From Longimicrobium sp. (GTDB lineage Bacteria > Gemmatimonadota > Gemmatimonadetes > Longimicrobiales > Longimicrobiaceae): 64,000 nt of DNA. Below are positions 1 to 30,027 of this stretch, piece by piece. Within the stretch, counting starts at the first letter, position 1. Each line of letters starts with the position of its first letter. Under the pieces are notes generated by a model, which saw nothing but the letters and a program-made list of their open reading frames with translations, was not told the origin of the DNA and did no database searches. Both the position numbers and the translations under genes were made by a program. The stretch lies in assembly GCA_036389135.1 (NCBI GenBank), contig DASVQP010000048.1, forward strand, positions 58,399 to 122,398, given 5' to 3'.

Positions 1-826
1 CCGGGACGGTGGCGGCCGGCGCGGCGGTGCGCACCCCCAGCAAGGCGAGCAGCGCCGCGAACAGCCGTCCGATCGCGGTACGGGCGAGCGGAGGCGGCGG
101 GGAGGGCGGGGGCGCCGGCGGACGCACCACCACGAAGCGCTTGCGGCAGGAGACGACCCGCTCGGCGTCCGGCAGGTTCTCGGTGACCGAGACGGCCTCC
201 ACCCGCAGCTCCGCCTCGCGCCCCTCGCCCACCGTGCGCATCACCAGCGTCAGGGCGAAGCAGAGGCGGTCGGTGACCTCCACCTCCACCATCCCGCCGT
301 AGCGCCCCAGGAAGTCGCCGGGTGAGGTACGCGGGTCCACGCCGGCGCGCACCGCGTCGTAGCTGGCAAGGTCGGCAAAGCGCAGCACCACGTCGCGGTG
401 GCGCGGGGGAGTGGTGCCCTCCACCGGGGCGTGGTAGGTCCAGCGGCGGTCCGTGCCCGCCTCCACCACCGCCGCCGGCCGGTCCTTGGCCAGCTTCACC
501 ACGCAGGCGCGGCGGCGGTAGGGGGCGCGCAGCACCACCACGAAGTCGTCGGGGCGGTTGAAGCCGTAGGGCGCCGAGTAGGGCGGGTTCGTCCCGCTGG
601 CCAGGTTCCCCTTGGGCAGGTGCGTCTCACCCACCCCGCGCAGCAGGTCCCAGCGCAGGTGGATGCCGCTGGCGCTCCCGTCGGATCCGTCGCTTCCCGC
701 CGCCTGCAGGTACAGGTAGGGGCTCTGCACCAGCGCCGTTCTGGCGGCCAGCTGCTGCGGCACGGTGTCCACGCCGCCGCGGGGGTCGGCGACCGTCTCG
801 GGCGGGTAGGGGGTGACGGTGCTCAT
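1..826 (-). CDS. hypothetical protein, N-terminal part only (gene continues past the left edge); fourth gene of the giant-protein run
   Basis: The ATG at 824-826 overlaps the stop (823-825) of the upstream 1989-aa ORF as ATGA. The minus frame stays open to base 1 with strong third-position G/C. It begins MSTVTPYPPETVADPRGG. It is absent from the ORF track because it has no stop inside the window. No motif recognised. Confidence 0.7.
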   Translation of the reverse strand, partial: MSTVTPYPPETVADPRGGVDTVPQQLAARTALVQSPYLYLQAAGSDGSDGSASGIHLRWDLLRGVGETHLPKGNLASGTNPPYSAPYGFNRPDDFVVVLRAPYRRRACVVKLAKDRPAAVVEAGTDRRWTYHAPVEGTTPPRHRDVVLRFADLASYDAVRAGVDPRTSPGDFLGRYGGMVEVEVTDRLCFALTLVMRTVGEGREAELRVEAVSVTENLPDAERVVSCRKRFVVVRPPAPPPSPPPPLARTAIGRLFAALLALLGVRTAAPAATVP

Positions 827-3800
827 TGCGTGACTCCCCCGGGCGAGAGGGCGGGGCCCGCCGGGCCGGTGGGATCCACGGGCGGCGAAAGGAAGAGGGT
901 CACCGTCACCACGCTCGCCGGTGCCCAGGCGGCGCCGTTCCACTCCGGCAGGGTGAAGGTGAAGTCCAGGTCGTGCAGCGCCACGTTCAGCCCGGGGTGG
1001 CCCACGAACGCCATCGCCCGGTCCTTCGAGTGCACGGTGGTGAAGGAGACCGGCGGCGCGTTCCGCTGCGTGAGCACCAGGGTAGGGGCGGCGCCCGCGT
1101 CGGTGATGCGGGGGTCGATCAAAGGCTCGGGGCTGCGCACCAGGAAGCCGAGCACGCCCCCGCCTGCCGCGTCGCGGACGATCGTGAAGTCGGTGCCCAC
1201 CGGCGGGTCGAGGGCGGGAAGGCGCAGCACCCCCTGCGCCAGCCGGTCGAACGGATGCCCGTACTCCCGCTCCAGCGGGTCGCCCGAGGGCGGGGCGTGC
1301 GAGAGCAGCGCCACCAGTTGCGCGGTGCGACCTGCGTCCAGGGTCACGGCCACGTCGTCGTACACGGCGTCGCGCAGGTACGTCCCGTCGGCGTCGGCCA
1401 GGCGGTAGCTGTTCACCTGCTCCGGGTGGTCCGCGTAGCGCGACGTCCGGAAGTTTTCGCGGTGCACCTCCTGGACGGCGGCGCCGAAGCGCGCCGTGAA
1501 CACGGCCAGGTACAGCTTGCGAGGCTTGAGGCGTTCCACGCTCACCGTGGCCTGCACCCCCGGTGGCGCGATCCCGCCCTGGCCCACGCCGGTGCAGGGG
1601 TCGCCCTGCGTGGCCAGGTTGTTCAGCAGCTTCACGTCGGGCGGCGAGTGCCTCGCCAGCCCGGCGGTGAAGGCCAGGTAGACGGGGGGGACCTCGCCCG
1701 GGGCGCCGGGCGCGGGCCTCGGGTCCACCGGGTCCAGGATGGCCACCTCCAGGGTGCTTGAGACGGCGGGGTTCCCGTTGTACGCGTCGAACTGGCCGCC
1801 GAACATGGTGGCCACGTACGGGTGCAGCCACGCCAGCCGCAGCCGCGGCTCCACGTAGTAGAGCGGCTTGGCGTTCAGCACGTTGCCGTCGGCGCTGGGG
1901 TAGCTGTGCGCGAAGTCGATGTACGGCTTGAGCGACTGCAGCCGGAACTGGTCGGCGCGGTCGGCCGCGAGGAGCGCCTGGTATTCGGCGCGGTACGGAT
2001 GGAAGTGCCCCAGCGGCCCCCGCGTGCGGAAGCCCAGGTGCAGGTAGCGCCGGGCGGCGGTGGAGATGCCCTGCTCGTCGACGGTGACCCGGTCCACCAC
2101 CTGGAGGGTGACCGCATAAAGGGTGTCGAGCCGCCAGATGGGGTGGAGGGTGCGATTGATGGCCGTCACCATCGCCGTGTTGCTGGCCAGCAGGGCCCCG
2201 GCGCCGGGGATGGTGGCGTTGTACGCCGCGTCTTCCGCCGGCAGCCAGCAGAAGCCGAAAAAGAACGTGGCGCAGCCGTAGTCGAAGGATCGGTCCAGGT
2301 TGCAGGGTGGGTAGTCCTGGCGCGGCGGCCGCTGCCCTCCCAGCCCCTCCCCCACGGTGTCGCCGCGCAACGGGACGGCGCCCGGGCAGCAGCGCAGCAG
2401 CGCGGCCAGCGCCTCCATCTGCCCGCGCAGCTCGTCCGCCTCCGCGCGCAGCTCCTCCGCCAAGCCGTGGTGGTGGACGGCCAGCGCGGGGGAGCAGCAC
2501 TCCCCCTGCGCGCCATCGGCCAGCAGCTCGTGCTCGGCGGCCTGGGCCAACAACTGGGCCACCTCCGCTTCCAGCGCGGCGAGCTGTCCGCGCACCTCGG
2601 CGCAGACCATGGCGAAGTACGCCTCCAAGCTCCCGCACGGCGGCGGAGCCGGCGGTGCGGGGGGCGGCGGACCCCGGTCGGGCCAGGGGGGGCGACCCCC
2701 GGCCGGCGCGGTGGCGACCGCGGTGGGTCCGTCGCGGCAGTCGCATTCCCCTGCCTCGATCACCACCCGGTCGATCGGCGCACCGGGTGCGTCGTAGACC
2801 AGCGGCTGCTGCAGGCGCAGGGGGTCGGCCACCTCGCTGCGCATGGTGATGTCATCGTAGACAGGCTGGTGGCTGGGGTTCACCCCCGTCTGTCGCCGGC
2901 GGCGGTAGTGCACGGTCACCCCGTCGGAGAGGGTGGCCAGCTTCAGCCGCACCCGCGCCGCCGGCTCGGGAAAGACGATCTCCAGCCGCCACCCGGGGCG
3001 CAGCGCCACACCGCGGAGGTGCCCGAACGTGTTGGGGAAGGGGATCGCCCGGCCGTCGCCGCCGGTGAGCCGCACGTCCACGCCGTCGAAGGCGTAGCGC
3101 CGCCCCGACGCCATCGGGTCCGGCCAGGCGGGCCCGTCCACCGCCACGCAGCGCTCCGGGCGCGGGGGCTCGGGGCAGAAGAGCGTTTCGGTGGTGATCC
3201 CGGAGTTTTCGGGGATGAAGGGCCCGGCCGTGTCGTTGACGTAGCTCAGCGGCGTCTGCGACAGCAGCGAGAGCTTGTTCACCCGCCCCGGCTGGTCGGC
3301 CTGCCACCACCCCTCCCGCAGCCCGGCAAGGTCCGCCGGGTCCACGAAGGAAAGGTGGGCGAGCGGGGTGAGCGCGCCGTACACGTCGTAGTCGTCCCAG
3401 CGGCCGGCGGCGGGGTTCCAGGAGCGGATCCGCACCTCCTCCACCACGTACTCGTGCCGCACCTGCGGCGACTTCCCCCGCTGCGGCGGCACCAGGTCGG
3501 CGTTGGCGAAGCCGGTGCCGGTCACCCCGATATTGGTCACGGCGGGCCCCGGCGCCACCGGGCGTTTGAACTCCACGTCGATGGTGCTGTCCAGCGGCAC
3601 CACGAAGTCGTCGAAGCTCCCGCTCCACCCGGCCGTGGGCGGCGGCGGCAGCGCGGCGGCCATGGCGCCCGGCGCCACGTTCAGCGCGAAGCGCTCGCGC
3701 GTGGCCACGCACACCGCGCGGGCCGCCTCGCTGGGGGCGTCCTCGTTGAAGACCGGGAGGGCCGCCGTTTCGAGGTTGGAGTCGAAGGTCCAGGTGAAGT

Positions 3801-6792
3801 CGAGCGTGAAGGTGCCGCCCAGCTTCTTCACCGGCTTGGGGAGGTCGAGCTCCACGCTCACCGAGCCGGTAACGATGAACGGCTTCGGCGCCTCGGCGGC
3901 CAGCGCGGCCGCGAGGCTGACCCCCATCTTGAACTTGAACACCTTCACCGCCGCCGAGCCGCCCATCAGGATCCGGCCGCCGATCTGCTTGGGCTTGAAG
4001 CTCAGCCGCCCCTGCGTGTCGAGGTACACGTGCGCCTCGAAGCGCACGGGTCCGAACCCCTTGGCGAAGTCCCAGCTGACCCCCGCCCCGGCGCGGATCC
4101 CCGAGGCGGAGAGCATCAGGTACGACCAAGCGTCGAACAGGGTGAGGATGCGCGCCGTGATCCGCTTGCTCGCGGGGGTGTCGACGCCGGCGTTGATGTA
4201 CCAGGCGCCGGAGTCCTGGAAGAAGAACCCCATCTCCACCAGCGCCTGCAGGTCGAGGATGGCGCCCGAGCCCTCGGGCACCTGGTAGTCCACCCCGAAG
4301 GCCGCTTGGATCGACTCGCGCGTGACCGCGATCACCACCGAGAACGGCGGCTCCGTGGCGCGCAGGTCCGCCCGCTCGCCCAGCACCGCCGCCTGCCCCA
4401 CCAGCAGCAGGACGTCGGGGAGGGAAAGGAGGAGGAAGAGCTTGGCCGAGATCGCCTTCGCCGAGTCGCTCGCGGTGCCCACCACCGCCCCGGCGCCGAG
4501 CGAGAAACCCTTGCGGGAGGTGAACTTGTCCACGTTCACCCCTTCGCGGTACGAGAGCGGCACCTGCTTCTTGTAGTACTCGTACCACGAGGCGTCGGGT
4601 GGGAGGTTCACCGCGGCGCGGTCGGCCACGTAGTGCATCCCGAGCAGCACGCGGAAGGCGTAGAACGCGAGATTGGTGTTGCCGATGACGATCGGTACCG
4701 ACAGGCTGAGCTCGGCGTCGATCAGGAACGACGGGATCGACGGGTTGAGCCGCATGGCCGCGCTCGCGCCGATCCCCGCTCGGGGGAGCATGAGCCTGAT
4801 GCCGCCCGCGTACTCGGCGCCCGCGCTGGAGCCGGTGGCGTCCGGGTCCGGCTCCTTCACCTGCAAAAAGCCGCTGATCAGCACCGCTGCCTCGTCGGCC
4901 GACTTGCTGCCGGGGATCACCATGTCGACGGCAATCCCCTCCACGCGCATGAACACGTCCAGTGGCGGGCCGTCGGTGCGCCAGTAAATCTTCAATCCGC
5001 TGGCCTGCACCTGAACGCTGCCGGAGTTCACGTCCACCCCGCCGTCGAAGGAGAGCCACTTGTAGCTGAACCCGTTGCGCTCGTACGAGCCGGTTCCGAG
5101 CGCCGTCACCGACAGGGTAACGGGCCCCACCTTGAGGGTAACCGCCTTCGGCAGCACCAGGGTGCCACCCTCGATCTCGAAGGTGCCGTCTTCCCAGATC
5201 ACCAGCTTCTTGAGGTCGACCGAGATCGGGCGGTCGAAGGTGAGCGCGGGGATCTGGAAGGTGAGCGTGGCGGTGCCCGAGGCGCACAGGAAGAAACGGT
5301 CGTCCTCGCGCCCGAAGCCCAGGGTGTAGATCACGAAGTCCATCACCCCGGGGATGCGGATGAGAATGCCGTCCTTTTCCGTGGCCGTCACGCTGAAGTC
5401 GCCGTCCTGGGCGATGTGCGCGCGGATGTCGATGGTGGCGTCGTTCCCCAGGGCGTCCTTGAAGCCGGGGATGGTGATCCACCCGCGGATGTTGGACTCG
5501 ACGATGGCGTTGCGCTCGAAGCGCAGGTCGAAGGCGGTGAGGCCGGCCTCGATGTTCCCGATCTGCGTGTGCATCACTCCCGCGGCGTCGAACCCGATCT
5601 TTCCCGAGAAGCCCCCGGTACCGATGATCAGGTTCGTCCCCACCAGCTTGGGGCCCGTGCCCGTCGTCGTCCCCGACGCCTTGAACCACCTGTTCGGCAG
5701 GCCGATGGTGGCCTCCTTCACGTAGACGCCCACGAAGTCCACCGGCCGCCCGTCCGCCGTGGCCTCGGGGATGTTCTTTGTGCGGCTCAGGTCCAGCTTC
5801 ATGTCGTCGAAGCCGAGCGTGAGCCCCGTGTCGCCGATCTGGCTTGTGGTGAAGCTGAAGGTGCCCAGCGAATCGAACTCGAACCCCGTTTCGGTGGAGT
5901 AGAGCACCGAGCCCGCCACGAAGGTGAGCCGCGACTTCTGTTTCTGATCCTCGGGAAGGGTGGAGTTGGCGTCGATCACCTCACCGGTGTTGGCGTCCAC
6001 CGGCTGCAGCAGCGTGCGCGGGAACTCCAGCGCCAGGCTCAGGTCGCGGATGGCCACGGAGCAGCGGGGGACCAGGAACGCCTTGAAGTCGTCGCGCGAG
6101 AACTCCTTCACCCACTGGCCGAAGAAGGTGGAGATGTCGTTGAACACCTGGTCCACCGAGTCGGCGCTGCTCAGGTAGTCGTAGATCAACTCGTAGAGGG
6201 TGAAGGTCTGCGACTGCTCGAGCTGCGCGAGCAGGTCGTCGATGACTTCGTGGGGGGCGGCGCCGGGGTTCTGCAGGGTGGGGTTGGTGAGGAGGACGGA
6301 GGGGAGGTGCTCGAGGTTGATGCTGTTCACCAGGTCCTGCACCGGGTCGGCTGCTGCGCCGTGGAACAGGTCGATGAGCCGCGCCAGCAGCGCCGGCGGC
6401 GGCGCGCCCGAGATCTCCACCAGCGCGTCGAACACTAGCCGCGGCAGCTCCACCAGGCTCGCGTGCTGGAAGTGGCGCACGTACTTCAGGATCTGCCAGC
6501 GGTAGCTGAGCGCGATGGGGATGGAGGTCTCCGGGCCCGCGACCAGGTCGGGGTACATCACCAGCGCCACGCCCCCCGTACCGGGGATCTCGAAGCCGAG
6601 CCGGCGGTAGATGACCAGTGACAGCTGGTAGAACCCCACGTCGCCGTGCGCGCTCTTCTGGACCTGCAGGTCGCGAAAGAAGAGGCGGTCGAACACGGCG
6701 TGAAGCCCCTCCTGCACGAACCCCAGGTTGGGCGGGATCGCGTCCAGCGGCAGCAGCGTGGAAACGGAGGGGTAGAATGAAGTGTCGGTCAT
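823..6792 (-). CDS. giant hypothetical protein (1989 aa)
   Basis: Single uninterrupted ORF with coding-like third-position G/C and normal amino-acid composition. ATG at 6790-6792 is preceded by an AT-rich leader. No catalytic or repeat motif recognised. Contains an internal Pro-rich, Cys-rich, coiled-coil segment. Confidence 0.85.
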   Translation of the reverse strand: MTDTSFYPSVSTLLPLDAIPPNLGFVQEGLHAVFDRLFFRDLQVQKSAHGDVGFYQLSLVIYRRLGFEIPGTGGVALVMYPDLVAGPETSIPIALSYRWQILKYVRHFQHASLVELPRLVFDALVEISGAPPPALLARLIDLFHGAAADPVQDLVNSINLEHLPSVLLTNPTLQNPGAAPHEVIDDLLAQLEQSQTFTLYELIYDYLSSADSVDQVFNDISTFFGQWVKEFSRDDFKAFLVPRCSVAIRDLSLALEFPRTLLQPVDANTGEVIDANSTLPEDQKQKSRLTFVAGSVLYSTETGFEFDSLGTFSFTTSQIGDTGLTLGFDDMKLDLSRTKNIPEATADGRPVDFVGVYVKEATIGLPNRWFKASGTTTGTGPKLVGTNLIIGTGGFSGKIGFDAAGVMHTQIGNIEAGLTAFDLRFERNAIVESNIRGWITIPGFKDALGNDATIDIRAHIAQDGDFSVTATEKDGILIRIPGVMDFVIYTLGFGREDDRFFLCASGTATLTFQIPALTFDRPISVDLKKLVIWEDGTFEIEGGTLVLPKAVTLKVGPVTLSVTALGTGSYERNGFSYKWLSFDGGVDVNSGSVQVQASGLKIYWRTDGPPLDVFMRVEGIAVDMVIPGSKSADEAAVLISGFLQVKEPDPDATGSSAGAEYAGGIRLMLPRAGIGASAAMRLNPSIPSFLIDAELSLSVPIVIGNTNLAFYAFRVLLGMHYVADRAAVNLPPDASWYEYYKKQVPLSYREGVNVDKFTSRKGFSLGAGAVVGTASDSAKAISAKLFLLLSLPDVLLLVGQAAVLGERADLRATEPPFSVVIAVTRESIQAAFGVDYQVPEGSGAILDLQALVEMGFFFQDSGAWYINAGVDTPASKRITARILTLFDAWSYLMLSASGIRAGAGVSWDFAKGFGPVRFEAHVYLDTQGRLSFKPKQIGGRILMGGSAAVKVFKFKMGVSLAAALAAEAPKPFIVTGSVSVELDLPKPVKKLGGTFTLDFTWTFDSNLETAALPVFNEDAPSEAARAVCVATRERFALNVAPGAMAAALPPPPTAGWSGSFDDFVVPLDSTIDVEFKRPVAPGPAVTNIGVTGTGFANADLVPPQRGKSPQVRHEYVVEEVRIRSWNPAAGRWDDYDVYGALTPLAHLSFVDPADLAGLREGWWQADQPGRVNKLSLLSQTPLSYVNDTAGPFIPENSGITTETLFCPEPPRPERCVAVDGPAWPDPMASGRRYAFDGVDVRLTGGDGRAIPFPNTFGHLRGVALRPGWRLEIVFPEPAARVRLKLATLSDGVTVHYRRRRQTGVNPSHQPVYDDITMRSEVADPLRLQQPLVYDAPGAPIDRVVIEAGECDCRDGPTAVATAPAGGRPPWPDRGPPPPAPPAPPPCGSLEAYFAMVCAEVRGQLAALEAEVAQLLAQAAEHELLADGAQGECCSPALAVHHHGLAEELRAEADELRGQMEALAALLRCCPGAVPLRGDTVGEGLGGQRPPRQDYPPCNLDRSFDYGCATFFFGFCWLPAEDAAYNATIPGAGALLASNTAMVTAINRTLHPIWRLDTLYAVTLQVVDRVTVDEQGISTAARRYLHLGFRTRGPLGHFHPYRAEYQALLAADRADQFRLQSLKPYIDFAHSYPSADGNVLNAKPLYYVEPRLRLAWLHPYVATMFGGQFDAYNGNPAVSSTLEVAILDPVDPRPAPGAPGEVPPVYLAFTAGLARHSPPDVKLLNNLATQGDPCTGVGQGGIAPPGVQATVSVERLKPRKLYLAVFTARFGAAVQEVHRENFRTSRYADHPEQVNSYRLADADGTYLRDAVYDDVAVTLDAGRTAQLVALLSHAPPSGDPLEREYGHPFDRLAQGVLRLPALDPPVGTDFTIVRDAAGGGVLGFLVRSPEPLIDPRITDAGAAPTLVLTQRNAPPVSFTTVHSKDRAMAFVGHPGLNVALHDLDFTFTLPEWNGAAWAPASVVTVTLFLSPPVDPTGPAGPALSPGGVTQ

Positions 6793-6914
6793 GATTTTTA
6801 TCTCAACGAACGACTAGGGTCCAGTAGGGTCCTTCTCTCCAACCGCATGACGGTCGCGATCGAAAGAGTCATACGAGATTGCACGGGCTGGTTCGGGATC
6901 GGTGGGTGAAAGAT

Positions 6915-6993
6915 CTCACGGAGAGTCAGCAGAGTCAGCAGAGTCAGCAGAAACTGCTTTGTTTTTTCTGATGACTCTGCTGACTCTGCGTGA
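6915..6993. repeat. word-repeat hairpin with arms built from tandem CAGAGTCAG units
   Basis: The left arm tcacggagagtcagcagagtcagcagagtcagcag pairs with the right arm ctgatgactctgctgactctgcgtga. It lies between the 784-aa and 1989-aa genes, so it is terminator-like on the minus strand. Confidence 0.8.
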
Positions 6994-7064
6994 TTCCTCT
7001 TTTCCCGTTGTTCCAGAACGATGCTCGGTGATCCAGTATCACGAGTAACTGACGCGAAGCGAGA

Positions 7065-9419
7065 TCATGCTTCAACGCCTTGATAAAGGATCGAGTGAAA
7101 TTTCTCTACATAACCAACCAGGAAGGCACTCCGCGCAGCCAGCTTCCTGTTCCTGGATTTGAAGGCATTTTTCAATTCGTACTGGTTGTGTGATGAGATC
7201 GCCCGGATAATACCAGGGTCATTGCGAGAAATACGGACATATGCACCGTTCTTCATCTTCGGCTTCAACAGCACGTTGTCCATCTCGTACTCGGTCACCA
7301 CCCACCGTCCGATACCACCGTAGGAAACAGTCGCAAACAGCAGCTTCTCAAGAATGTTGGGTGCTGCTCCCGTTGCGATGATGTTCGTGACCTTGTTTTT
7401 GATGAGGGTCTGTGTATAGTATTTTTTTGAAAAGATGAGCAGGTAATTCTGCACAATGGTCCGCTTGGCTACGGGCATCTGGAAAGCGTCGAAGGTAGCT
7501 TTGTTCCTGAGGTAGATCAGCATGCCTGGGCCTCTGTACAACCCGAAGATCTTCTTCAGGGCCGCTTTGAACAGCCCCGCGTTGAATCCTAGTTTGTGAG
7601 TGCCATCCAGCACGGAGTCCGGCGCAGTGAAATCGCCGCTGGCGTAAAAACCGTTTAACAAGGTTTCGAAGCTGGAGTAATTGACTGGATTGTCGGGTAA
7701 CTCACTGGCCGGTCGCACCAGGTAGCGCTGACTATCAGTCGCGGGCGTAATCAGGATCTTCGCCGGAGTTTCCGACGCGGGTTTGTGATAGAAGACTTCA
7801 TGCGAGTAAATGTTTCGGAAGCCGTTGACGGGATCCCCAATCCTCTGCTGAATGGTAACGCGCCACCCCGTGTAACCCGCGGCGGGACCGGTTGCGGAAC
7901 TGATGGCGATCAGACTTTCGTCTATTCCCATCAGATCTCGAAGCGATAGGCGAAGGCTGGCGTCGCCGGCCGCAAACGGAATGGCAACGGAGCGCGACTC
8001 GTAGTGCAACGTGAACGATCCCGTTGCACCAGCGAGTTTCTGGATCGTAAACTCGACCTTGTAGACGTTTGCCGTGGCGTAGTTGCCGCCGATGTCGTAA
8101 CCGTACCCCAGGGTCAGGCCGGACGCCCACCGCGTGGTGGCTTGCGAGCGTATGTTGGGGTTCTCCGCATAGAACTGCCCCGCCTGATAACGGACCAACA
8201 GGCCGGTCAGCACCCCTCCCGACGTGTAGAATGTGTCGGCCGTGAAATCCTCATCACCCGCGAAATCTTCTTCCAGGTAATGGTTGGTTGGTGTGCTGGC
8301 ACTCGTGACATAATATCGGTCAGTGGAATCACGATTGATGGTCCGGCCTGCAATGGCGGCGCTTCCCGGTTGCGGCGAACTCGCGGTAAAGACACCTGCC
8401 GTATCGTATGTGCCGAAGGTGATCCGACGTTTTGCATGCACGACTGTTTCAATCTCATCCGGGTAATGCGCACCCCGCACGAAGTTCTGTGGCTTGTTCT
8501 CCGTATAGACCGTGAGGAAATAGTACAGCGGAAGCGTCTTGATCGCATCGATGGTAGCCTGATCATCGATTGCTTCCTTGGGTACCCGCCCGGGAAAGAG
8601 ATCACCGAAGTCAATTTCGTAATAGGAATATGCACGTGCAGTGTCAGGGGTGTTGTAATCGAAGCTTACGACGTTTCCTCCGTCGTCTACGTGATCGTAC
8701 GTGCTCCCGGCGAGTGCCACCTGTTCACCAGCGCCGTTCAGCCGCTTCACGGCGTAAGCGGCGCGGATGTCATTGGCTCGCTTGCTCCACGTCGTTCCGC
8801 CCACGTCTAGTGGATCGCCAAAATTGGATATGAACGGGCTCCCAGCATAGTAGCTGTCGGAAGGAGTGTCGTAGAACAGGTCCTGACCCGCAATGTCGAA
8901 GTTCGCGACGGGGTTGGGGCGCGTGATGGTGCAGAGTTGAAACTGCGGACTTAGAACTTCACCCTTCGAGTTGACGACTTCGTGGAATGCCCCCAGCACG
9001 TAGGTACCGTCGGGGGTTTTCACGATCCTTCTGTTGCAGTAGAGGTCCAGTTCCGGATCGGTAAGTGGCGGTGAGATCTGGACTGCTTCCCCTTGGAAGG
9101 GGAGGCGGAACATGATCAGGAACGTGAGTTTGTCCAAGCTCTTGTTCGGCTGGCTGGTTCCGGTCTGCTCCAGATCCGGGTTCACTCCGTTGTCGCTCGA
9201 AGGATCCCACTCGGTCGTGATCGTAGCACCGACTTTCGTATAGAAGCCGGCGTATTCGGCAATTTTTCCACGCAGCGGAATCCCAGCAGCCTTGATGTCT
9301 TGGAGCAATTGCCACAGCGGAGCGTCGAAGCCCCCGGGCATCATAGAGGGGATCTCGACGACGCCCGTGTTGACTTCGGTAGACGAGGAGATCTGGGCCT
9401 GTGGATCAAGCGCCAGCAT
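7065..9419 (-). CDS. hypothetical protein (784 aa), visibly AT-richer than its surroundings
   Basis: Long ORF with protein-like composition rich in Y/N/K/F. Its start overlaps the stop of the upstream gene by 14 nt. No motif recognised. Confidence 0.85.
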   Translation of the reverse strand: MLALDPQAQISSSTEVNTGVVEIPSMMPGGFDAPLWQLLQDIKAAGIPLRGKIAEYAGFYTKVGATITTEWDPSSDNGVNPDLEQTGTSQPNKSLDKLTFLIMFRLPFQGEAVQISPPLTDPELDLYCNRRIVKTPDGTYVLGAFHEVVNSKGEVLSPQFQLCTITRPNPVANFDIAGQDLFYDTPSDSYYAGSPFISNFGDPLDVGGTTWSKRANDIRAAYAVKRLNGAGEQVALAGSTYDHVDDGGNVVSFDYNTPDTARAYSYYEIDFGDLFPGRVPKEAIDDQATIDAIKTLPLYYFLTVYTENKPQNFVRGAHYPDEIETVVHAKRRITFGTYDTAGVFTASSPQPGSAAIAGRTINRDSTDRYYVTSASTPTNHYLEEDFAGDEDFTADTFYTSGGVLTGLLVRYQAGQFYAENPNIRSQATTRWASGLTLGYGYDIGGNYATANVYKVEFTIQKLAGATGSFTLHYESRSVAIPFAAGDASLRLSLRDLMGIDESLIAISSATGPAAGYTGWRVTIQQRIGDPVNGFRNIYSHEVFYHKPASETPAKILITPATDSQRYLVRPASELPDNPVNYSSFETLLNGFYASGDFTAPDSVLDGTHKLGFNAGLFKAALKKIFGLYRGPGMLIYLRNKATFDAFQMPVAKRTIVQNYLLIFSKKYYTQTLIKNKVTNIIATGAAPNILEKLLFATVSYGGIGRWVVTEYEMDNVLLKPKMKNGAYVRISRNDPGIIRAISSHNQYELKNAFKSRNRKLAARSAFLVGYVEKFHSILYQGVEA

Positions 9420-11500
9420 GGCCGTACACCTTCAGGTTGGTGGTGCCGTTCAGAGGATCGGTATTCATTTCGTCGACCTTGTAATCGCCCGTCGCCGTAT
9501 CGGCCTTGAATCCCCGCAGAACGACTTCGAACGACGTATAGCGGACACCCTTGACGTCGGTCTGAGTCTGCAAGTGCTTCACGCCCAAGTAGATTCGAAA
9601 ACGATTGTCCAGAGTGGCCGCAGCACTGCTCTTCCAGATGTCATACGTGGTGTTTGAGAGGACAAGCATGAGGAGCTTGCCGAAATCAGGAATCGTGAAC
9701 CTCGCCCGAGCCTCGGCGTCGGCGTCCGAGGTGAACTCTGCCATGGGAACGGTTTCAGCAGCAGAAAGCACGAGGTCGCTCCTCCGTACCCGCTCGAGCG
9801 CATACTTGAGGACCACCAGGTTCGGGTAGCTTCCCGTGAATTCACTGGTCTCTCCGGAGAGCCTCACGAGCGCAGAGGTCTGTCCCGTCTGCTGCCGTAT
9901 GCACGTGGGCAGCACGAAGAGCGTTGTGTTGGCGGAGTCGCGTGCAATGCCGACGTTGCCGATGAAATCGCAGTCCAGCCCCGCCACTCCTCGCCCATCC
10001 ACGTAGACTTCCTCCTCGTACACCGCGGACTTGATGCTAGACGAGCCCGCAAAAAGGATGCGCAGGTCGAGCGGATAGAGCAGGTTGTCGAGGTAGTTCG
10101 CCGCCGGCAGGGCCGTGGAAACCATGGAGGCCGTGGCCGCGCTACCCGGCTCCTGCTTGAGGTACTTCAGCCGGATGTAGCACGAGACGGGCGTCGTGGC
10201 GGCTTGGCCCGTGACGTTGGGCACCACGAACGTCATCGATTTCGCGGAAGTGGTCCCGGTCTGGGTGAATCCGCCGAAAGCTCCCTTGAAGTCGTCGAAG
10301 AACCGTTCGGCACCGTTCAGCTCGGCCGGGAAGCCGTCGCCCTTGGCGCCCGTTTCGCGGTACCCCTGTGACACGTAGAGCAGCGGTTTGGGATTGTGGC
10401 CGACCGGGAGCTGGATCCGGAACGCGTTCCGCGCTTTAGTGACGTTGTTGCCCGGGAAATCCGCTGCCTTCAGGGTCAGGAGAGGCCACTTGCTCGCGTA
10501 ATAGTCGACCTGCGCCGGGGTAACAGTTCCAGGCTTGTAGCTGAGCTGGATGGTGTCGGTGTAGTTCCCGAAGTAGTTCAGCGAGTAGTTGTGCTCGTTG
10601 CGAATGTCCAGGTAGCCCTTGTTCCGGTTCATGAACGACGAAAGCACGTCGATGTACAGATCCTTTCCCCCTTTGGGCTCGAACGTCGACCCGGTGCTGC
10701 TCCTGGCGTGCACCCCCACGTCGAAGAACGATCCGTAGAAGGCGCAGGGGTCCATGAAGCCCAGCACCTGCTCTTTCGCGTGGCGGTGGTCGAACCTTTG
10801 TGCGGGCGTCGCCTGGGTGGGGAGCGCCGCCACGGAGATGACGCTCTCCAGCCTCCTCGCCAGGGAGATCTCGTGGCGGAAGCCGAGCCCCTCCAGCAAG
10901 ATCTCGATTCCAAAGCTTGCCCTGTCGAACTGGCCGATCCTCCACCCCCCCATCACCGGCTGCAGTTGGAACTTCACTCCCGCCTGGTAGAAGAAGTTGT
11001 CGATCGGCTGGTCGTCAGCGAACTCCGGGCTTGCCGCGGCCGTGAACCCCACGCCCAGCGCCTCGGCGGGGGGGGAGGTGTTGGTATTCGCGGTGGCGTT
11101 CTTCTCCGCCTGCGACTTCCAGATGCTCTGCGTGAGCTGGTTTGTCGACGCCTGGGCGACCTCGTTCCCGTTGATGAGTGACGAGCGGAGGATCCCCTTG
11201 TAGATGATGTACTTGATGGGGACGAAGTTCAGCGCCGGCTGCTCCCGCGGGCGGAGCACCAGGTTCACGAGCGCCGGGTTGTTGGGGTTCGAGATTTCCT
11301 GCACGCACACGACGCCGGCGCACACCGCGTAGGCGGTGGGGTCGAAGTTCTTGCTGGGATCGGCCGTGTGGAGGCTGGTGGTGCGGTAGAGGTCGGCCCC
11401 ATTGACTGTGCCAGCCGGCCCGAACGCCTGGCTGGGGAGCTGTGGGGCGAGGAGATCCGCGTTTGTGAAGAAATGGAACTTTGCGGCCATGGATCCGGCT
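9406..11500 (-). CDS. hypothetical protein (about 698 aa)
   Basis: The track ORF extends to 11802, but its first ~100 codons are R/S/P-rich junk. The ATG at 11498-11500 (MAAKFHFFTNADLL) has GGAG about 9 nt upstream. No motif recognised. Confidence 0.8.
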
Positions 11501-11904
11501 CCGCTGCATGCTGGGACCTGCGATGAACGACTGCCTGACCTGTGGATCGACTGCGCCTGAAGGAACTGCCAGGCTGAGATGCGCCGGGAAGGGCGGGGGT
11601 GGAGCGGCGCTGAGAGCGTGAAGCGCGCATTTGACGTGCCGCGCGCCGCCCTTCGCGTCGTGCCGGTGCAAGGCCCTGCGAGCGGCGGAGTTGGGTCGCG
11701 CCGCGCCGTGTGAGCGTCCGCCGGCAACGTGAGGCTGGCCCGTCCCAGGTGGGACGAAAATGGGGCGAGAAACGGGGCTACTGAGCGGCTTGTGCTCGTC
11801 ACGCACAGCTCTCAACGTACAGTAGTGATCGCGACCGCGCTGAAGATGAGGCAAAGCAGCCCCAAGTCCGTTCGATGCTCAATTTGGGGATGTAAGCCAG
11901 CGCC

Positions 11905-12018
11905 AGTAACAAAACGGAGTAACAAAAGCCAGTAACGCTGGGTGATCCTGGGCAACCCCGGGTTGCGCAAACCTCACAGAAATACTAGACTTTTGTTGCC
12001 TCCGTAACGCGGCGTAAC
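11905..12018 (+). repeat. short direct repeats AGTAAC x3 and CGTAAC x2 in the AT-rich region upstream of the giant-protein run
   Basis: AGTAAC occurs at 11905, 11918 and 11931. CGTAAC occurs at 12003 and 12013. A small hairpin GCAACCC/GGGTTGC lies at 11952-11966. Confidence 0.5.
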
Positions 12019-12040
12019 GGGCCGCCGCGGTTTCCTAATC

Positions 12041-12073
12041 TTGGGGCCGCGCGTTCGAGTCGCGCCGGGGGCA
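12041..12073 (+). other. tRNA 3'-end-like fragment (T-arm plus acceptor 3' strand), possible att remnant
   Basis: GCGCG-TTCGAGT-CGCGC at 12049-12065 has T-stem/T-loop form. It is followed by a 7-nt CGGGGGC and an A. No matching 5' acceptor strand, D-arm or anticodon arm lies upstream. Confidence 0.35.
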
Positions 12074-12094
12074 CTATCGACGAAACCCAACCGT

Positions 12095-12497
12095 GGATGC
12101 TGGGTTTCGTCGTTTGTTCGACACCAAGCGACGAACGGGCCCGGGAGCATCTTTGCTTCCGGGCCCGCTCGCCGTCTGTTCGGGATCTCAGCGCCCCACT
12201 GCGCTCAGGGGTCGACCCTGAACGGCATCGTGCGAGAGCGCGTGACGCCGTTCGTGCCGACGTAGGTGGCGGTGAGAGTCACGCTGCCGGGCGAGACGCC
12301 GGTGATCGTCGCGGACTCGCTGGTGGACGGCTCTCCGACCCTGACGATGCTGGTGTCCGAGCTCGTGAACACGATCGTATAGCTCCCGGGTACGCCGTTG
12401 CCGTTCGCGGTGTACCGGACCCTCGCGGAAGCGGTGCAGGTCGCTCCCACCTTCACGGCCTGGCACGTCAGGGCATTGAACGAGGGGATACACGTCC
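12095..12497. repeat. left copy of an approximately 400-bp direct repeat (partner at 17157-17567)
   Basis: By-eye alignment with 17157-17567 shows high but imperfect identity. It covers the last ~95 codons of a Big_2 gene plus its downstream stem-loops (GGGCCCGG...CCGGGCCC and TTCGTCG...CGACGAA). Confidence 0.85.
12205..12490 (-). pseudogene. 3' remnant of a Big_2-domain surface protein gene
   Basis: The C-terminal ~95 aa (SFNALTCQAVKVGATCTASARVRYTANGNG...RSRTMPFRVDP) parallel the C-terminus of the 17266-19713 protein. Upstream of 12490 the frame becomes R/P-rich junk with no signal peptide. Confidence 0.7.
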
Positions 12498-13322: not shown

Positions 13323-15638
13323 ATGCGGTTCAAACATTGCTGCCCCCTTGCCCTGCTCGGCGCCGGACTCCTGGGCGCGTGCACCGACGACGTCACCGGC
13401 ACGGGCGGCGCAAACCCCGCTCCGGAGGCCCCGCGCGCGCTCGGCCTGGTGGAGATCCGCATCAGCGGCATCGGCACCGCCCAGATGAGCGCCGCGGTGT
13501 TTCCGCTGGAGCGCGCGCGGGGGGACCTCACCCCGGTGCCGGGCGGCAGCCCCGCGGGCACCGTCCAGGTGCGCCACGTGAGCGCCGCCACGGTGGACGT
13601 GGGTACGCGTGGGGCCGGGGGACAGCGCTACCTGCAGGCCGTCTTCCAAGTGCGCAACGCGGATGCGCAGGGCACCGCCTACGCCACGCAGCGGCGGAAC
13701 GTGGCCTTCGTTCCCGTGAGCACCGCGGGCACCATCCCCGGCACACCCGTGCGGCGGTTCCTCAGGCAGGACGGCGGCGCCGCGGACTCCGCGCTGGCGG
13801 CGCAGCTGCGGCCCACCGGGGCGGTTGCGCTGGACGCGGGGGGCGCGCCGGCCTCGCAGTACCCGGACGTTCTGCAGGCCTTCACCGAGGCCGAGGCGGA
13901 TGCGATCGGCATGCCGGAGGGGGTGACGAACCGCTTTCCCTACGGCTTCGTGGTGCGGCACGCCACGGCAACGGACACGCGGACGCTGGCGCCCACCCCG
14001 GCGGCGGACCAGTTCGACGGGCGCGTCACCTTTGCGTACCGCATCCCGCTGGCGGCCACGGCGGCGGACGACCCCTTCACCATCTCGGTGCTGGCGGTGG
14101 CGGTGGAGGACGGCGAGACGCGCGTGACGCAGGCGCCGGAGGAGCAGGCGGCGGCGGGGCGCAGCGCGTTCGAGGCGCGGGCCGCCGCGCTGGCCGCCAC
14201 GGGGGTCACGCTCTTCCCCGGCGGCGCGTACGCGGGAAGCGCGGCGAAGCGCATGCTCTGCGGGGTGCGCACCGCGGGCGAGAGCGGGAATCCGGCAGCC
14301 ACGCTCTCCCCCTGCCCGGCGATCGCATCGGTGGCGGTGAGCCCGACGGACGCGGTGCGGCTGGTGAACGTGGCGAGCGAGCTGGTGGGGCAGACGGTGC
14401 AGCTGACCGCGGCCGCCACGGACGCCAACGGCGGCCCCGCCGAGTGGGCGAGCATCGCGTGGAGCAGCTCGGACTCCGCGGTGGCGACGGTGAGCGGCAC
14501 GGGGCTGGTGACCATTACGGGCGCGGGCAGGGCCACGATCACCGCCGCCGCGGGCGGGAAGAGCGGAACGGCCACCCTTGCGGGTGAGCCGCTGAGGGCG
14601 GCGACCCTGACGACCGGGACGAGCCACGCCTGCGGACTGACCCCCTCGGGTGCGGCGTACTGCTGGGGGGCCAACTACCGGGGCCAGCTGGGCGACGGCA
14701 CCACCACGGACCGCGGCTCGCCGGTGGCGGTCGCAGGCGGGCATACCTTCACCAGCATCAGCGCGGGCTTCGCCTTCACGGTGGCGCTGACCTCCTCGGG
14801 AGTGGCCTACGCGTGGGGGGGCAACGACGAGGGCGCGCTGGGCGACGGCACCACCACGAACCGCGCCGAGCCGGTGGCGGTCTCCGGCGGGCTGACCTTC
14901 GCCAGCATCAGCGCGGGCGGCTTTCACGTGGTGGGGCTTACCTCCACGGGTGCGGCCTACGCCTGGGGGCGCAACCAGCAGGGCCAGCTCGGCGACGGCA
15001 CGGACACCCTGCGCACCGCGCCGGTGGCGGTCACCGGCGGGCTCAGCTTCGCGAGGGTTGAGGGGGGCTTCTTCCACACGGTTGCGCTGACCTCCACGGG
15101 TGCGGTATACCAGTGGGGGGGAAGCGGCATCGCTAGCGCCGCACCCATGGTGGTGCCCACGGGCGGGCGGCCGTTCGTGAGCGTCTCCACGAGCGCGTAC
15201 CATACGGTGGCGCTCGCCGCCTCGGGCAAGGCCTACGCGTGGGGGAGCAACTCCGTGGGCCAGCTGGGCGACGGCACCACCACGAACAGCGCCGCGCCGG
15301 TGGCGGTTTCCGGCGAGCTTACGTTCGCCAGCATCACGGCGGGCAGAGACTACACGTTGGCGCTGACCCGGGCGGGTGCGGCCTACGCCTGGGGAGGCAA
15401 CGTCCGCGGATCGCTGGGCGACGGCACGACCACGGACCGTACCGCGCCCGTGGCGGTCTCGGGCGGGCTGACGTTCACGAGCATCGGCGCGGGTGTGTTT
15501 TACACGTCGATCGGAGTGACCTCCGCGGGCGCGGCCTACGGGTGGGGAGACTATTCGGGCCAGTCGGGTGGCAGTCCCGGCACGATCTACCCCGCACCTG
15601 TGGCGATCTCCGGCGGGGTGGTCTTCAAGCAGCCGTGA
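13323..15638 (+). CDS. RCC1-repeat lipoprotein with a Big_2 domain
   Basis: Lipoprotein signal MRFKHCCPLALLGAGLLGAC. One Big_2-like segment (VSPTDAVRLV...TATL). At least seven repeats of the form YAWGxNxxGQLGDGTTTxRxxPVAV. Confidence 0.9.
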   Translation: MRFKHCCPLALLGAGLLGACTDDVTGTGGANPAPEAPRALGLVEIRISGIGTAQMSAAVFPLERARGDLTPVPGGSPAGTVQVRHVSAATVDVGTRGAGGQRYLQAVFQVRNADAQGTAYATQRRNVAFVPVSTAGTIPGTPVRRFLRQDGGAADSALAAQLRPTGAVALDAGGAPASQYPDVLQAFTEAEADAIGMPEGVTNRFPYGFVVRHATATDTRTLAPTPAADQFDGRVTFAYRIPLAATAADDPFTISVLAVAVEDGETRVTQAPEEQAAAGRSAFEARAAALAATGVTLFPGGAYAGSAAKRMLCGVRTAGESGNPAATLSPCPAIASVAVSPTDAVRLVNVASELVGQTVQLTAAATDANGGPAEWASIAWSSSDSAVATVSGTGLVTITGAGRATITAAAGGKSGTATLAGEPLRAATLTTGTSHACGLTPSGAAYCWGANYRGQLGDGTTTDRGSPVAVAGGHTFTSISAGFAFTVALTSSGVAYAWGGNDEGALGDGTTTNRAEPVAVSGGLTFASISAGGFHVVGLTSTGAAYAWGRNQQGQLGDGTDTLRTAPVAVTGGLSFARVEGGFFHTVALTSTGAVYQWGGSGIASAAPMVVPTGGRPFVSVSTSAYHTVALAASGKAYAWGSNSVGQLGDGTTTNSAAPVAVSGELTFASITAGRDYTLALTRAGAAYAWGGNVRGSLGDGTTTDRTAPVAVSGGLTFTSIGAGVFYTSIGVTSAGAAYGWGDYSGQSGGSPGTIYPAPVAISGGVVFKQP

Positions 15639-15662
15639 AGGGGAGGAGCGATGCTCCCCGCC

Positions 15663-16574
15663 TCACGGGCCCGCCAGCGGGAGCGGGGTGCCGCCCAGGA
15701 TGAGCCGCCGCGTCCACACGCGGCGGAGGAGGGCGGGGATCAGCCCCGCGACCGCCGCGCGCGAGGCGGCGGAGAGCGGGACGCCGATGCTCTCCCACAG
15801 CGCCCGCACCGCCTCCCGCTCCGGCAGCGCCTCCCACCGGGACGGCCGGTTCGCGTCGCGGGAGAGGAGCGCCACGCTCGCGAGCCGCGCCCCCCCGGGC
15901 CGCGCCCCGCCCAGCGCGTCCCAGGGGATGAACAGCTTCCCGTCCGCCCCCATCCGCCCGGGCAGGTCCGGGGCGAAGCGCCGCCGTGCGTCGGGCCACA
16001 GGTGCACCCCGCGGTCCCAGCCGTACACCTGGAGGGTGACGGGGTCCAGCCAGGCGAAATCCTCCGCGACCGGGTCCCACCCGCCGCGCACCGCCTGGAC
16101 GAGCGTGCTGCTCTTTCCGGTTCCGCTGCGGGCCAGGAGCGCGGTGGCCTCGCCGTTCCGGGCGATGACGGACGCGTGGAGCGGCACCAGCCCGCTCGCA
16201 CGTAGCGACTCGTACACGGCCATGAAAAGCGCTCCGCGAAGAAGCTCCCTCCTCGACTCCTCCTCCAGCCCGTACGGTTCGATCCGGCTTCCCGCGGTGC
16301 CGAGCGCCAGCCGGACGCCCGCGGCCTCGTCGCCGATCATCCAGTCATCCTCCCCCAGGGTCCGGCAGGGGAGCTCGATGCGGGGGATGCGTACCACGGG
16401 TCCGGGAGCCGGGAGCGGGGTGCGCGGCCGGGCACCTCGCGCCACGACGATGTCGAACCCCGCCTCGCCCGTCTCGTGCTCGTCGAACCGCCAGTGTGCG
16501 TGCAGCCACTGCTCCAGGCTGGGCGGGAGATTCGCCGTTTGCACGGTGCGGCCCATCACGGAGAACTCCGTCAT
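15663..16574 (-). CDS. HPr kinase-related (HprK-like) kinase
   Basis: LHASVIARNGEATALLARSGTGKSST matches the HPrK C-terminal domain P-loop pattern. Its start overlaps the upstream PqqD stop as ATGA. Confidence 0.75.
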   Translation of the reverse strand: MTEFSVMGRTVQTANLPPSLEQWLHAHWRFDEHETGEAGFDIVVARGARPRTPLPAPGPVVRIPRIELPCRTLGEDDWMIGDEAAGVRLALGTAGSRIEPYGLEEESRRELLRGALFMAVYESLRASGLVPLHASVIARNGEATALLARSGTGKSSTLVQAVRGGWDPVAEDFAWLDPVTLQVYGWDRGVHLWPDARRRFAPDLPGRMGADGKLFIPWDALGGARPGGARLASVALLSRDANRPSRWEALPEREAVRALWESIGVPLSAASRAAVAGLIPALLRRVWTRRLILGGTPLPLAGP

Positions 16575-16828
16575 GTGGAGACGCGGATCAGCTCCGCGGC
16601 GCGCAGCCGCTCAAAGAGGCCGCGCACGTCCCGCTCAGCCGTCGCGACGTCGACGTCGAGCACGGCAGCGAGCTCGCGTGCGGCGGCGGTCACCGATTCC
16701 GCGGGAAGCGCACTCCAGATGCGGCGGCCCGTGTCGTTGAGGCTGAACATCTCGCCCGTGCCCGGATCGAGCAGGATCAGCTCGCGATCCAGGTGCGTTT
16801 CGATGACGCGGGGATTCCTGGCGTACAT
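16571..16828 (-). CDS. PqqD-family protein (RiPP recognition element type)
   Basis: 85 aa: MYARNPRVIETHLDRELILLDPGTGEMFSLNDTGRRIWSAL, then a helical tail. This is the typical PqqD pattern. The frame stays open upstream to 17146, but that stretch is R-rich junk. An alternative start exists at 16933. Confidence 0.75.
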   Translation of the reverse strand: MYARNPRVIETHLDRELILLDPGTGEMFSLNDTGRRIWSALPAESVTAAARELAAVLDVDVATAERDVRGLFERLRAAELIRVST

Positions 16829-17040
16829 TCGGCTCGCGCGGAGAGGAGAGAGCACGCACCTGCAGGTTCCGGCCCCGTGGGCTGCGCGTCCGGCCGGCGG
16901 ACGGCGGCCGCCGCCGACTGAGCCACGTACCATGGGCGGACGAAAACGCACGAACACCACCCCTGCACATCCAGGACCGAGGAGCGGCCCTGGTACGCCC
17001 CGCGGTCTTCGGTTTCCCACCCGGCATCTTCTCGTTGTTT

Positions 17041-17070
17041 CTCTCCCGCGTCTCTGCGCCTCTGCGTGAG
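17041..17070. repeat. degenerate single arm of the CACAGAG-family element
   Basis: cccgcgtctctgcgcctctgcgtgag resembles the right arm of the elements at 40392, 54074 and elsewhere. No left arm was found. Confidence 0.5.
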
Positions 17071-17156
17071 CCCCACGGGTTTCCTGCAACCGGCATGCGA
17101 CCCCGAGCGGCACCCATGAGGTCCATCCGGCTCTACCCCTCGCCACGGGGCTACCG

Positions 17157-29993: not shown

Positions 29994-30027
29994 GGGGAAC
30001 CGTTTTTACGCCCAACATGCAAGGATC

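Follow-up and report, generated by a model that had tools for sequence, protein, structure and literature searches.

Several described systems resemble, in one aspect or another, the locus presented here. Polymorphic toxins (Rhs, CDI, MuF, LXG, and TANFOR, the last described as a class in Bacteroidetes [PMC7073777]) join a constant N-terminal region or leader to variable toxin C termini. Tc (ABC) toxins are made of co-directional giant proteins and carry a hypervariable enzymatic payload, and extracellular contractile injection systems (eCIS, such as PVC and Afp) and the related tailocins occur as patchy chromosomal clusters across phyla. The toxin/immunity concept is already known; the core proteins and the architecture described below are not. 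Here, we analyzed four large genes, called A, B, C, and D in their order of transcription, at the left end of a 64,000-nucleotide stretch of Longimicrobium sp. DNA (assembly GCA_036389135.1, contig DASVQP010000048.1, positions 58,399 to 122,398; hereafter, the window). We read them, with slightly better than an even chance of being right, as an operon-like locus of a widespread and undescribed polymorphic-toxin delivery system, in which B is the current cargo. In the literature searched, no paper mentioned DUF6603, the family to which C proved to be homologous, or described a cluster of A, C, and D.

Conserved gene order and the exchangeable slot between A and C

The four genes lie in the window as follows (lengths in amino acids [aa]).

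9406-11490, minus strand: gene A, 694 aa, a conserved core protein of the A family
7065-9419, minus strand: gene B, 784 aa, occupant of the variable cassette slot
823-6792, minus strand: gene C, 1989 aa, a conserved giant core protein
1-826, minus strand: gene D, the first 275 of 1831 aa, a conserved giant core protein whose C-terminal module lies off-window

Full-length D was obtained from the gene call of the source contig (locus L001; JGI 3300034136 Ga0334933_000043, a Longimicrobium-like metagenome contig), which reaches ~9 kb past the left edge of the window and carries D at its positions 14887-20382. The mechanical open reading frame (ORF) of A spans 9406-11802 from a GTG; its start was placed at the ATG at 11490 by the source-contig gene call, the alignment of homologues, and an upstream GGAG. 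The original prediction made on this DNA had given B and C the coordinates 7065-9419 (784 aa) and 823-6792 (1989 aa), which were identical on re-calling, and a D of more than 275 aa running off the window, which leftward extension completed to 1831 aa. Its gene A (9406-11500, 698 aa) is real, with the start now corrected to 11490 and the length to 694 aa. Both overlaps that it named were found in the sequence: 14 nucleotides (nt) for A/B (ATGCTGGCGCTTGA) and the shared ATGA for C/D, which is preceded by GGGGGAG. This tight coupling, with overlaps of 14 and 4 nt, counts in favor of the delivery system, and a 272-nt spacer (6793-7064) separates B from C. The GC content of the window is ~72% and falls to 58% around 6-10 kb. 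At third codon positions (GC3) it is 0.83 in A, 0.67 in B, and 0.95 in both C and D, with the minimum at position 2 in each gene, as expected. Because of this codon-position pattern, and because each protein has hundreds of homologues or a defined family, all four genes are coding.

When one genome was scanned for each GTDB species, relatives turned up in at least 164 species genomes, and 80 loci were fetched. Synteny was counted from tblastn and ORF layouts in the GTDB loci with enough flank. As seen in these counts, C has A upstream on its own strand in 67 of 68 loci and D downstream in 65 of 69, and both arrangements are found together in 60 of 64. The carriers span Bacteroidota, Acidobacteriota, Planctomycetota, Alphaproteobacteria, Chlorobiota, and others, and those among the fetched loci include Pedobacter, Mucilaginibacter, Flavobacterium, Fluviicola, Thermoanaerobaculia, Planctomycetaceae, Rhodospirillum, Chlorobiota, and Kapaibacteriota. 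When the plus-strand ORFs of the loci were clustered all against all, only A, C, and D were near-universal. A, C, and D are the conserved co-directional core of a widespread, undescribed gene cluster. The original prediction had made the conservation of gene order in other genomes its test, and the A ... C-D order proved to be kept in ~60 of 64 loci from several phyla. It had also raised the co-occurrence of all four families; this holds for the A, C, and D core across genomes and fails for B, a lineage-restricted cargo family of 17 proteins.

The space between A and C is occupied in two ways. In the split architecture, an A protein of ~650-730 aa is followed by a variable gene of 500-1140 aa and at least one small gene, then by C and D; in the fused architecture, a long A-family protein of 1100-3044 aa precedes C and D. 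Pfam matches among 32 slot proteins comprised EndoU_bacteria (two), PETase (two), PG_binding_1, OmpA, MORN_2 (three), WG_beta_rep, and LRR. Among 50 small genes located just before C, they comprised SMI1_KNR4/SUKH-1 (three), MORN_2, several LRR families, and single matches to RHS_repeat and RNase_T. The second-gene family of the Sphingobacteriia and Flavobacterium loci, designated f3, combines in 12 Pedobacter, Mucilaginibacter, and Flavobacterium loci a conserved N-terminal region of ~730-865 aa with a variable C-terminal domain (CTD) of ~200 aa. Three similarity groups of f3 CTDs were found, each paired with its own downstream family of small proteins.

CTDs of loci L046, L064, and L077: CxxC, deaminase-like; partners are 154-158-aa proteins
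CTDs of loci L042 and L069: 'STFF' motif; partners are 118-124-aa proteins
CTDs of loci L045 and L058: partners are 213-237-aa proteins

The second group probably corresponds to the two EndoU matches. Such pairing of CTD and small gene is the signature of toxin/immunity pairs.

The exchange of cassettes is seen most directly in the closest relative of the window locus, L085, whose C protein is 90% identical in amino acids and whose layout consists of A (689 aa), a 372-aa protein, a 380-aa protein, C (1988 aa), and D (1835 aa). By blastn, the source locus and L085 share 81% identity over the upstream region and A (window 12024-9403), 92.7% DNA identity over 11.6 kb of C, D, and the downstream flank, and 94% over a 120-bp block at the adjacent tRNA-Arg; no similarity was found across window positions 9402-6790, which hold B and the spacer. 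Exactly in the place of B, L085 has its two unrelated genes of 372 and 380 aa. Since the blastn similarity stops at 9402 and 6790, the breakpoints of the cassette coincide with the A stop codon and the C start codon. GC3 is depressed in B (0.67 versus 0.95 for C and D) and in the 3' part of A. These breakpoints and the depressed GC3 fit a slot whose content would have been imported recently.

The enzymes found in and around the slot could also be taken for an extracellular multienzyme complex serving nutrition or predation, in which proteases, esterases, and peptidoglycan hydrolases would be held by a giant scaffold. Long A-family proteins, in which the A domain can be internal, are dominated by S8 (10 of 41) and C15 (7 of 41) peptidases, PETase-like and CBM-bearing proteins occur, and many hosts are soil or freshwater degraders or predators. 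However, nutrition offers no explanation for EndoU and deaminase-like CTDs that are paired with immunity families, and the sharp replacement of a cassette between near-identical loci is typical of an arms race, so that we regard a nutritional complex as quite improbable.

Properties of the four proteins

Searches of A, B, C, and D against Pfam, NCBIfam, PHROGs, and PADLOC gave best E values of ~0.02-0.04, far under the curated cutoffs where the library has them; PADLOC-DB 2.0 returned zero families at E ≤ 1 for all four proteins. Sequence and profile searches of the PDB with the families of A, B, C, and D and with the f3 family yielded no matches. No signal peptide was evident at the N termini of A, B, C, and D, and no convincing transmembrane helix was seen. 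Components of a sheath, tube, baseplate (gp25, gp6), or spike (VgrG, PAAR) and the ATPase were not detected in the four proteins or among the ORF families common to 82 loci. Likewise, Tc markers (VRP1, TcA_TcB_BD, and neuraminidase-like for TcA; SpvB plus beta-propeller for TcB; RHS/YD repeats with an aspartyl autoprotease for TcC) were not found in the four proteins with Pfam and NCBIfam, and the PDB profile searches with the C and D families were empty. These results agree with the original prediction, which had seen no recognizable domain, signal peptide, or transmembrane segment in the four proteins: the family libraries, the PDB, and the N termini tell the same, and the profile hidden Markov model searches that it had suggested matched none of the four to a known family. 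Its structural suggestion led to the same end, with no whole-fold or otherwise meaningful Foldseek match for the models of A and of C residues 1-1200. Overall, it had read the region as an uncharacterized multicomponent machine, toxin, or defense locus; no known-family match and no loss of gene order emerged to contradict this. Among these options, comparison of loci directly favors the toxin, since relatives carry polymorphic toxin and immunity cassettes in the slot of B and close relatives differ in its content.

Protein A has 90 homologues, many of them with C-terminal Peptidase_M74, M23, C15, or zincin-like (HEIGH motif) extensions. Its AlphaFold2 (AF2) model, built on a 60-sequence alignment, reached a predicted local distance difference test score (pLDDT) of 92.5 and a predicted template modeling score (pTM) of 0.93. 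With this model, Foldseek found no whole-fold match in the PDB or in the BFVD viral library, and weak local matches of ~200 residues to the PrgK LytM domain, CbpA, and phage Lysin A. A gp27/VgrG-like hub was considered for A and rejected, the Foldseek similarity being only weak, local, and LytM/M23-like. Judging from the model, A apparently represents a new architecture with a LytM/M23-like subdomain, in which a by-eye reading of the alignment did not show clear conservation of the canonical HxxxD and HxH ligands. The part of A that is most widely conserved is its N-terminal domain.

10351-11490, minus strand: N-domain of A, residues 1-380, the most widely conserved part of A, with the LytM/M23-like subdomain and no clear catalytic motif

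This domain forms 1038 clusters at 50% identity (phmmer against 1.84 billion representatives) and is N-terminal in proteins of 650-1700 aa and internal in proteins of 1700-2600 aa. Consistently, tblastn of A into distant loci aligned only query residues ~1-380.

The B family comprises 17 proteins in a 5.8-billion-protein database, shows mosaic similarity among its members, and is absent from all 80 GTDB loci; several members lie on contigs of the same size as those reported for homologues of A and C. The possibility that B is a diverged paralogue of A was rejected, since hhalign showed B to be unrelated to A; B and f3 are likewise unrelated. What B does share with other slot proteins is a short leader.

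9360-9419, minus strand: leader of B, ~20 aa (MLALDPQAQISSSTEVNTGV), the sole similarity among four slot protein families
6909-7000, minus strand: long near-perfect hairpin inside the B-C spacer, with repeated GAGTCAGCA units

The leader consensus, ML[AL][LV][DE]PxAx[IVM]xSS[TS]x[VA]NPG, is common to four otherwise unrelated families, namely, B, the 596- and 606-aa proteins of L002 and L006, the 372-aa family, and the 380-aa family; the L002 protein matches Pfam PETase. Overlapping frames do not account for the leader, because the 380-aa gene and A do not overlap. In the clade of the window, the constant part is either this ~20-aa leader only or about 110-150 aa. The leader may address or load the cargo or, at the least, provide the recombination handle for cassette exchange. 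At the other end of the cassette, the B-C spacer has a folding energy of -100.2 kcal/mol (z -4.6), and no T-tract terminator follows its hairpin on the coding strand; therefore, it is not a classical terminator. The hairpin might act in RNA processing or stability, or it might be a scar left by recombination at the cassette edge.

Protein C has 229 homologues of ~2000 aa with 33-90% identity in Longimicrobium, Blastocatellia, and many Bacteroidota, and the family alignment shows very many invariant residues and conserved cysteine pairs. Its AF2 model covers residues 1-1200 and consists of an alpha/beta N-terminal domain of ~240 aa followed by ~45 consecutive long antiparallel strands (residues 243-1003).

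3754-6066, minus strand: beta-meander of C, residues ~243-1013, uninterrupted and antiparallel, corresponding to the DUF6603 region

Foldseek of residues 1-1200 returned the ApoB100 beta-belt, LptD, SlpA, and ushers at TM scores of 0.1-0.2 with a root mean square deviation above 24 A. Membership of C in the LptD, SlpA, usher, or ApoB100 folds was rejected, as such low scores reflect a generic, local beta-meander similarity. No Tc or Rhs entry was among the matches listed, and teneurin appeared at a probability of 0.12 only. When an outer-membrane beta-barrel was considered, the N terminus of C (MTDTSFYPSVS...) showed neither a signal peptide nor a hydrophobic leader. The family relationship came from PF20248 (DUF6603). 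C itself gave no match at E ≤ 1; several of its homologues scored 27.2-28.9 bits against a gathering threshold of 27 bits. Moreover, Mycetohabitans proteins with a DUF6603 annotation can be aligned to C residues 255-1013 with an E value of 1e-53 and match the C profile at 7e-109. By this sequence comparison, C is to be placed as a divergent member, homologous to the DUF6603 family. One of these relatives is found on the megaplasmid of the fungal endosymbiont Mycetohabitans endofungorum (L087, 6152-19173), in a distant variant of the system. There, a D-like protein of 1322 aa, a phospholipase-D-like protein, and a DUF6603 protein of 2496 aa are encoded side by side, with insertion sequence (IS) elements on the flanks and no A-family gene. 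Therefore, the partnership of C and D with an effector-like enzyme extends to Betaproteobacteria. Apart from these, two Haloferax mediterranei plasmid matches (H15, H16) encode a hypothetical protein resembling C residues 691-1014 (29% identity, E 1e-11), by which the DUF6603 beta-meander may reach Archaea.

The conserved core of protein D spans ~1570 aa and contains no known domain; its C-terminal end varies. The D protein of the window and 12 of 23 homologues carry an optional C-terminal module of ~247 aa, and PKD, Laminin_G_3, or beta-propeller domains form the C terminus of other D proteins. In six loci (L024, L026, L034, L045, L049, and L073), a phage tail-fibre-like protein of 498-730 aa is encoded directly after D, and in this sample only where D is short (~1715-1730 aa). 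These proteins have a tail-fibre-type N terminus and three tandem repeats of ~175 aa and resemble minor tail proteins of Rhizobium and Gordonia phages. In Sporocytophaga, D is followed by an 891-aa protein with a CBM_5_12 match, which a by-eye reading described as repeat-rich with a tail-fibre-like N terminus. Taken together, the variable ends of D and the tail-fibre-like genes suggest that another cell or surface would be recognized. The D protein of the window also carries, at residues 228-275 (window 1-145, continuing to ~290 off-window), a Pro/Ala-rich insertion of ~40 residues with a hydrophobic stretch (LARTAIGRLFAALLALLGV; Kyte-Doolittle hydropathy, 1.73); nearly all of the 23 aligned homologues lack the insertion and mostly have ~17-26 residues there.

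The PKD, lectin, and beta-propeller ends of D are typical of surface proteins. Together with the cysteine pairs of C, the many giant secreted proteins of Bacteroidota, and a type IX secretion system (T9SS) sorting domain in one neighboring gene, they would also suit A, C, and D being giant exported cargo, surface, or adhesin proteins of a type VI (T6SS), T9SS, or type I (T1SS) secretion system encoded elsewhere, with the toxin cassettes merely co-located. We consider this unlikely, since A, C, and D lack a signal peptide and any T9SS CTD, RTX, PAAR, VgrG, MIX, or TANFOR marker and stay together across phyla whose secretion repertoires differ. In addition, the fusion of the A domain to enzymatic heads and the 14-nt A/B overlap argue that the link is functional rather than positional.

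Proposed delivery mechanism and genomic setting

Returning to the delivery system, we infer from the arrangement described above how the proteins would assemble, what A, C, and D would do, how the cargo would leave the cell, and that B would act as cargo or effector. Protein A would be the constant handle or adaptor, with its 380-aa N-domain fused to or translationally coupled with an interchangeable enzymatic cargo. The slot between A and C would house the exchangeable cargo genes, which would be toxins with their cognate immunity genes in the relatives and B with its leader in the window. The antiparallel beta-meander of C, ~770 residues long, would probably make a very large curved sheet, barrel, or shell acting as a container or conduit, and D would present, on a body of ~1570 aa, a variable C-terminal binding module for recognition of the target. 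Jointly, the proteins would build a large complex by which cargo reaches other cells. That the three proteins constitute a new class of machine delivering interchangeable toxins, either as an extracellular particle or as a secretion system, unrelated to the type I to type XI secretion systems (T1-T11SS), Tc, contractile injection systems (CIS), and Umb, is a tentative proposal that we find more doubtful than probable. With similar reserve, we put forward for such a machine the division of labor in which the DUF6603 meander is the container or conduit, D and the tail-fibre-like proteins give target specificity, and the leader or the A domain addresses the cargo.

Several observations weigh against a delivery system. 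The model of C has a pLDDT of 70.7 and a pTM of 0.36, which corresponds to moderate confidence and makes its topology provisional, and A, C, and D show no structural homology to any delivery machine. An export route is not apparent; the four proteins lack signal peptides and known secretion motifs, and no Rhs, PAAR, VgrG, TPS, LXG, MuF, TANFOR, or T9SS-CTD signal was detected in A to D or in the conserved neighbors. For B, no toxin domain was found in Pfam, NCBIfam, PHROGs, PADLOC, or the PDB, either as a single sequence or as a 17-sequence profile, and the 272-nt spacer that follows it holds only spurious ORFs of ≤48 aa in place of an immunity gene. A search for the EndoU carriers gave only one OmpA match among ten chosen slot proteins, and one CTD searched against the PDB gave no match. 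In many loci, a giant long A protein with S8 or C15 is present and a separate toxin/immunity pair is not; therefore, the payload is not always a classical toxin. Finally, toxin/immunity pairs also gather in conflict islands, and some of the linkage could be positional only.

The genomic setting of the cluster was inspected on both sides. Its upstream border carries a tRNA-like remnant.

11996-12074, plus strand: degenerate tRNA-like sequence at the upstream border of the cluster; its T-arm and acceptor-like 3' half align to tRNA-Arg(CCT)

This sequence is ~70% similar to tRNA-Arg(CCT) in the same orientation, with decayed D-arm and anticodon arm, and was not called by ARAGORN or Rfam. A clean hairpin follows at ~12080-12112, and the minus strand of 11996-12112 gives weak Rfam matches to HPnc0260 (antisense RNA) and Plastid-ycf2, both presumably antisense-of-tRNA families. 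A true tRNA-Arg(CCT) is located directly after D, off-window. On the source locus it occurs at 20667-20742 and 24062-24135, as an inverted pair around genes for a PfkB-like kinase and an amino-acid permease, which makes, with the remnant, three tRNA-Arg-like sequences within ~20 kb. No integrase is encoded in the 17-kb interval between the tRNA-Arg(CCT) and the remnant, which is possibly an old integration scar. Since the closest relative, L085, has the same flanks, any integration is old and only the B slot was exchanged recently. Consequently, of the att remnant that the original prediction had supposed, the degenerate tRNA-like sequence and a nearby tRNA-Arg(CCT) are present; with no integrase and no ARAGORN or Rfam call, the idea of an island is weakly supported. 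Upstream of A, beside the remnant, lies a Big_2-like ORF fragment of 83 aa (12205-12456, minus strand), and beyond it the gene for a 771-aa RCC1/Big_2 repeat protein (13323-15638, plus strand); neither neighbor is conserved in other loci.

Flanked by a tRNA-Arg and, at its opposite end, by a tRNA-like remnant, the cluster might be taken for a degenerate phage-derived tail or host-recognition module, or for structural genes of an unrecognized mobile element at tRNA-Arg. The tail-fibre-like genes after D in some loci, the LytM/M23-like subdomain of A, and the tail-lysin-like peptidoglycan hydrolases on some homologues would agree with such an origin. Nevertheless, 50,697 phage genomes searched by tblastn with A, C, and D gave no match, PHROGs was empty, and A had no Foldseek match in the viral library. 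Moreover, no capsid, terminase, sheath, tube, tape-measure, integrase, or replication gene occurs among the ORF families shared between loci. We hold this origin to be highly improbable.

The same surroundings bear on an intracellular conflict or anti-phage system of the abortive-infection type, in which A, C, and D would detect an infection and set free or switch on effectors inside the producer. Nuclease, peptidase, and lipase-like effectors overlap the repertoire of defense systems, signal peptides are lacking, the cluster of the window is bracketed by tRNA-like sequences, and loci lie beside IS elements or transposases and, in one case, beside a CHAT/TPR-S protein. However, PADLOC was empty, and no NTPase, sensor, or nucleic-acid-binding domain was detected in A, C, and D. 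Co-variation of SUKH-1-type immunity genes with toxin CTDs is a mark of exported polymorphic toxins, the M23/M74 hydrolases and the PG_binding and OmpA modules work on the envelope from its noncytoplasmic side, and the binding modules of D and the tail-fibre-like genes suggest that another cell is recognized. An intracellular role is thus fairly improbable to us. Each of the four alternatives is less consistent than polymorphic-toxin delivery with the co-variation of immunity genes, the envelope hydrolases, the binding modules, and the missing phage and defense homology.

Two further observations concern the surroundings. The CHAT/TPR-S protein just mentioned is a 1480-aa protein with CHAT, LCAT-lipase, DUF7379, and TPR-S domains (L014, 184-4623), immediately upstream of an A-C-D locus; such proteins are typical of conflict systems, which suggests that A-C-D loci reside in conflict islands. 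Elsewhere in the window, a low-GC patch at 29900-31400 (~55% versus 71%) holds one 360-aa ORF (30028-31110, plus strand), for which the annotated relatives are all hypothetical proteins encoded by Nostoc and Vibrio plasmids; the patch is probably a separate recent insertion.

If polymorphic-toxin delivery is the function of the locus, it would represent a new delivery route for such toxins in abundant soil, freshwater, and marine lineages (Bacteroidota, Acidobacteriota, Gemmatimonadota, Planctomycetota, and some Proteobacteria), in which antagonism is poorly known beyond T6SS and T9SS. It would also give a role to three large orphan families: the A domain, with >1000 clusters at 50% identity; C, as DUF6603; and the unannotated D. 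The shared leader and the exchangeable slot suggest a programmable rule for cargo loading, and cultured carriers exist in Pedobacter, Mucilaginibacter, Flavobacterium, and Sporocytophaga.

Comparison with known systems

Among annotated families, C resembles PF20248 (DUF6603), which has no described function; residues ~255-1013 are homologous, and C itself falls under the Pfam cutoff. The Umbrella (Umb) particles of Streptomyces (PMC13274773) offer an analogy only, that of a multiprotein extracellular toxin particle combining a polymorphic toxin with diversified lectin modules. They differ in that the families are not known to be related and in that Umb has ALF repeats and lectin or trypsin-like domains and is Sec dependent.

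Like eCIS and tailocins, the A-C-D cluster is distributed patchily on chromosomes across phyla, has leader-like signals on its cargo, and includes tail-fibre-like genes in some loci. In contrast to them, it has no sheath, tube, baseplate, spike, or AAA+ ATPase in or beside the cluster and no homology to phage proteins. The resemblance to Tc toxins lies in the co-directional giant proteins, a possible beta-sheet shell component, variable receptor-binding modules, a hypervariable enzymatic payload, and the lack of signal peptides. The two differ in that no sequence, profile, or fold match to TcA, TcB, or TcC was found, and in that the A-C-D payload is separate or fused to A, whereas in Tc toxins it is the C terminus of the shell protein.

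In contrast to polymorphic toxins, the window's own cargo B has neither a known toxin domain nor an immunity gene, and the cluster has none of their known trafficking domains or secretion markers. Nevertheless, it shares with them a constant N-terminal region or leader with variable toxin C termini (EndoU and deaminase-like, with hydrolases fused to A), downstream cognate immunity genes, including SUKH-1, in the relatives, and cassettes that are swapped between close relatives. Its constant part is of a different kind: rather than one N-terminal domain, it consists of three separate giant proteins, A, C, and D, that flank the cassette.

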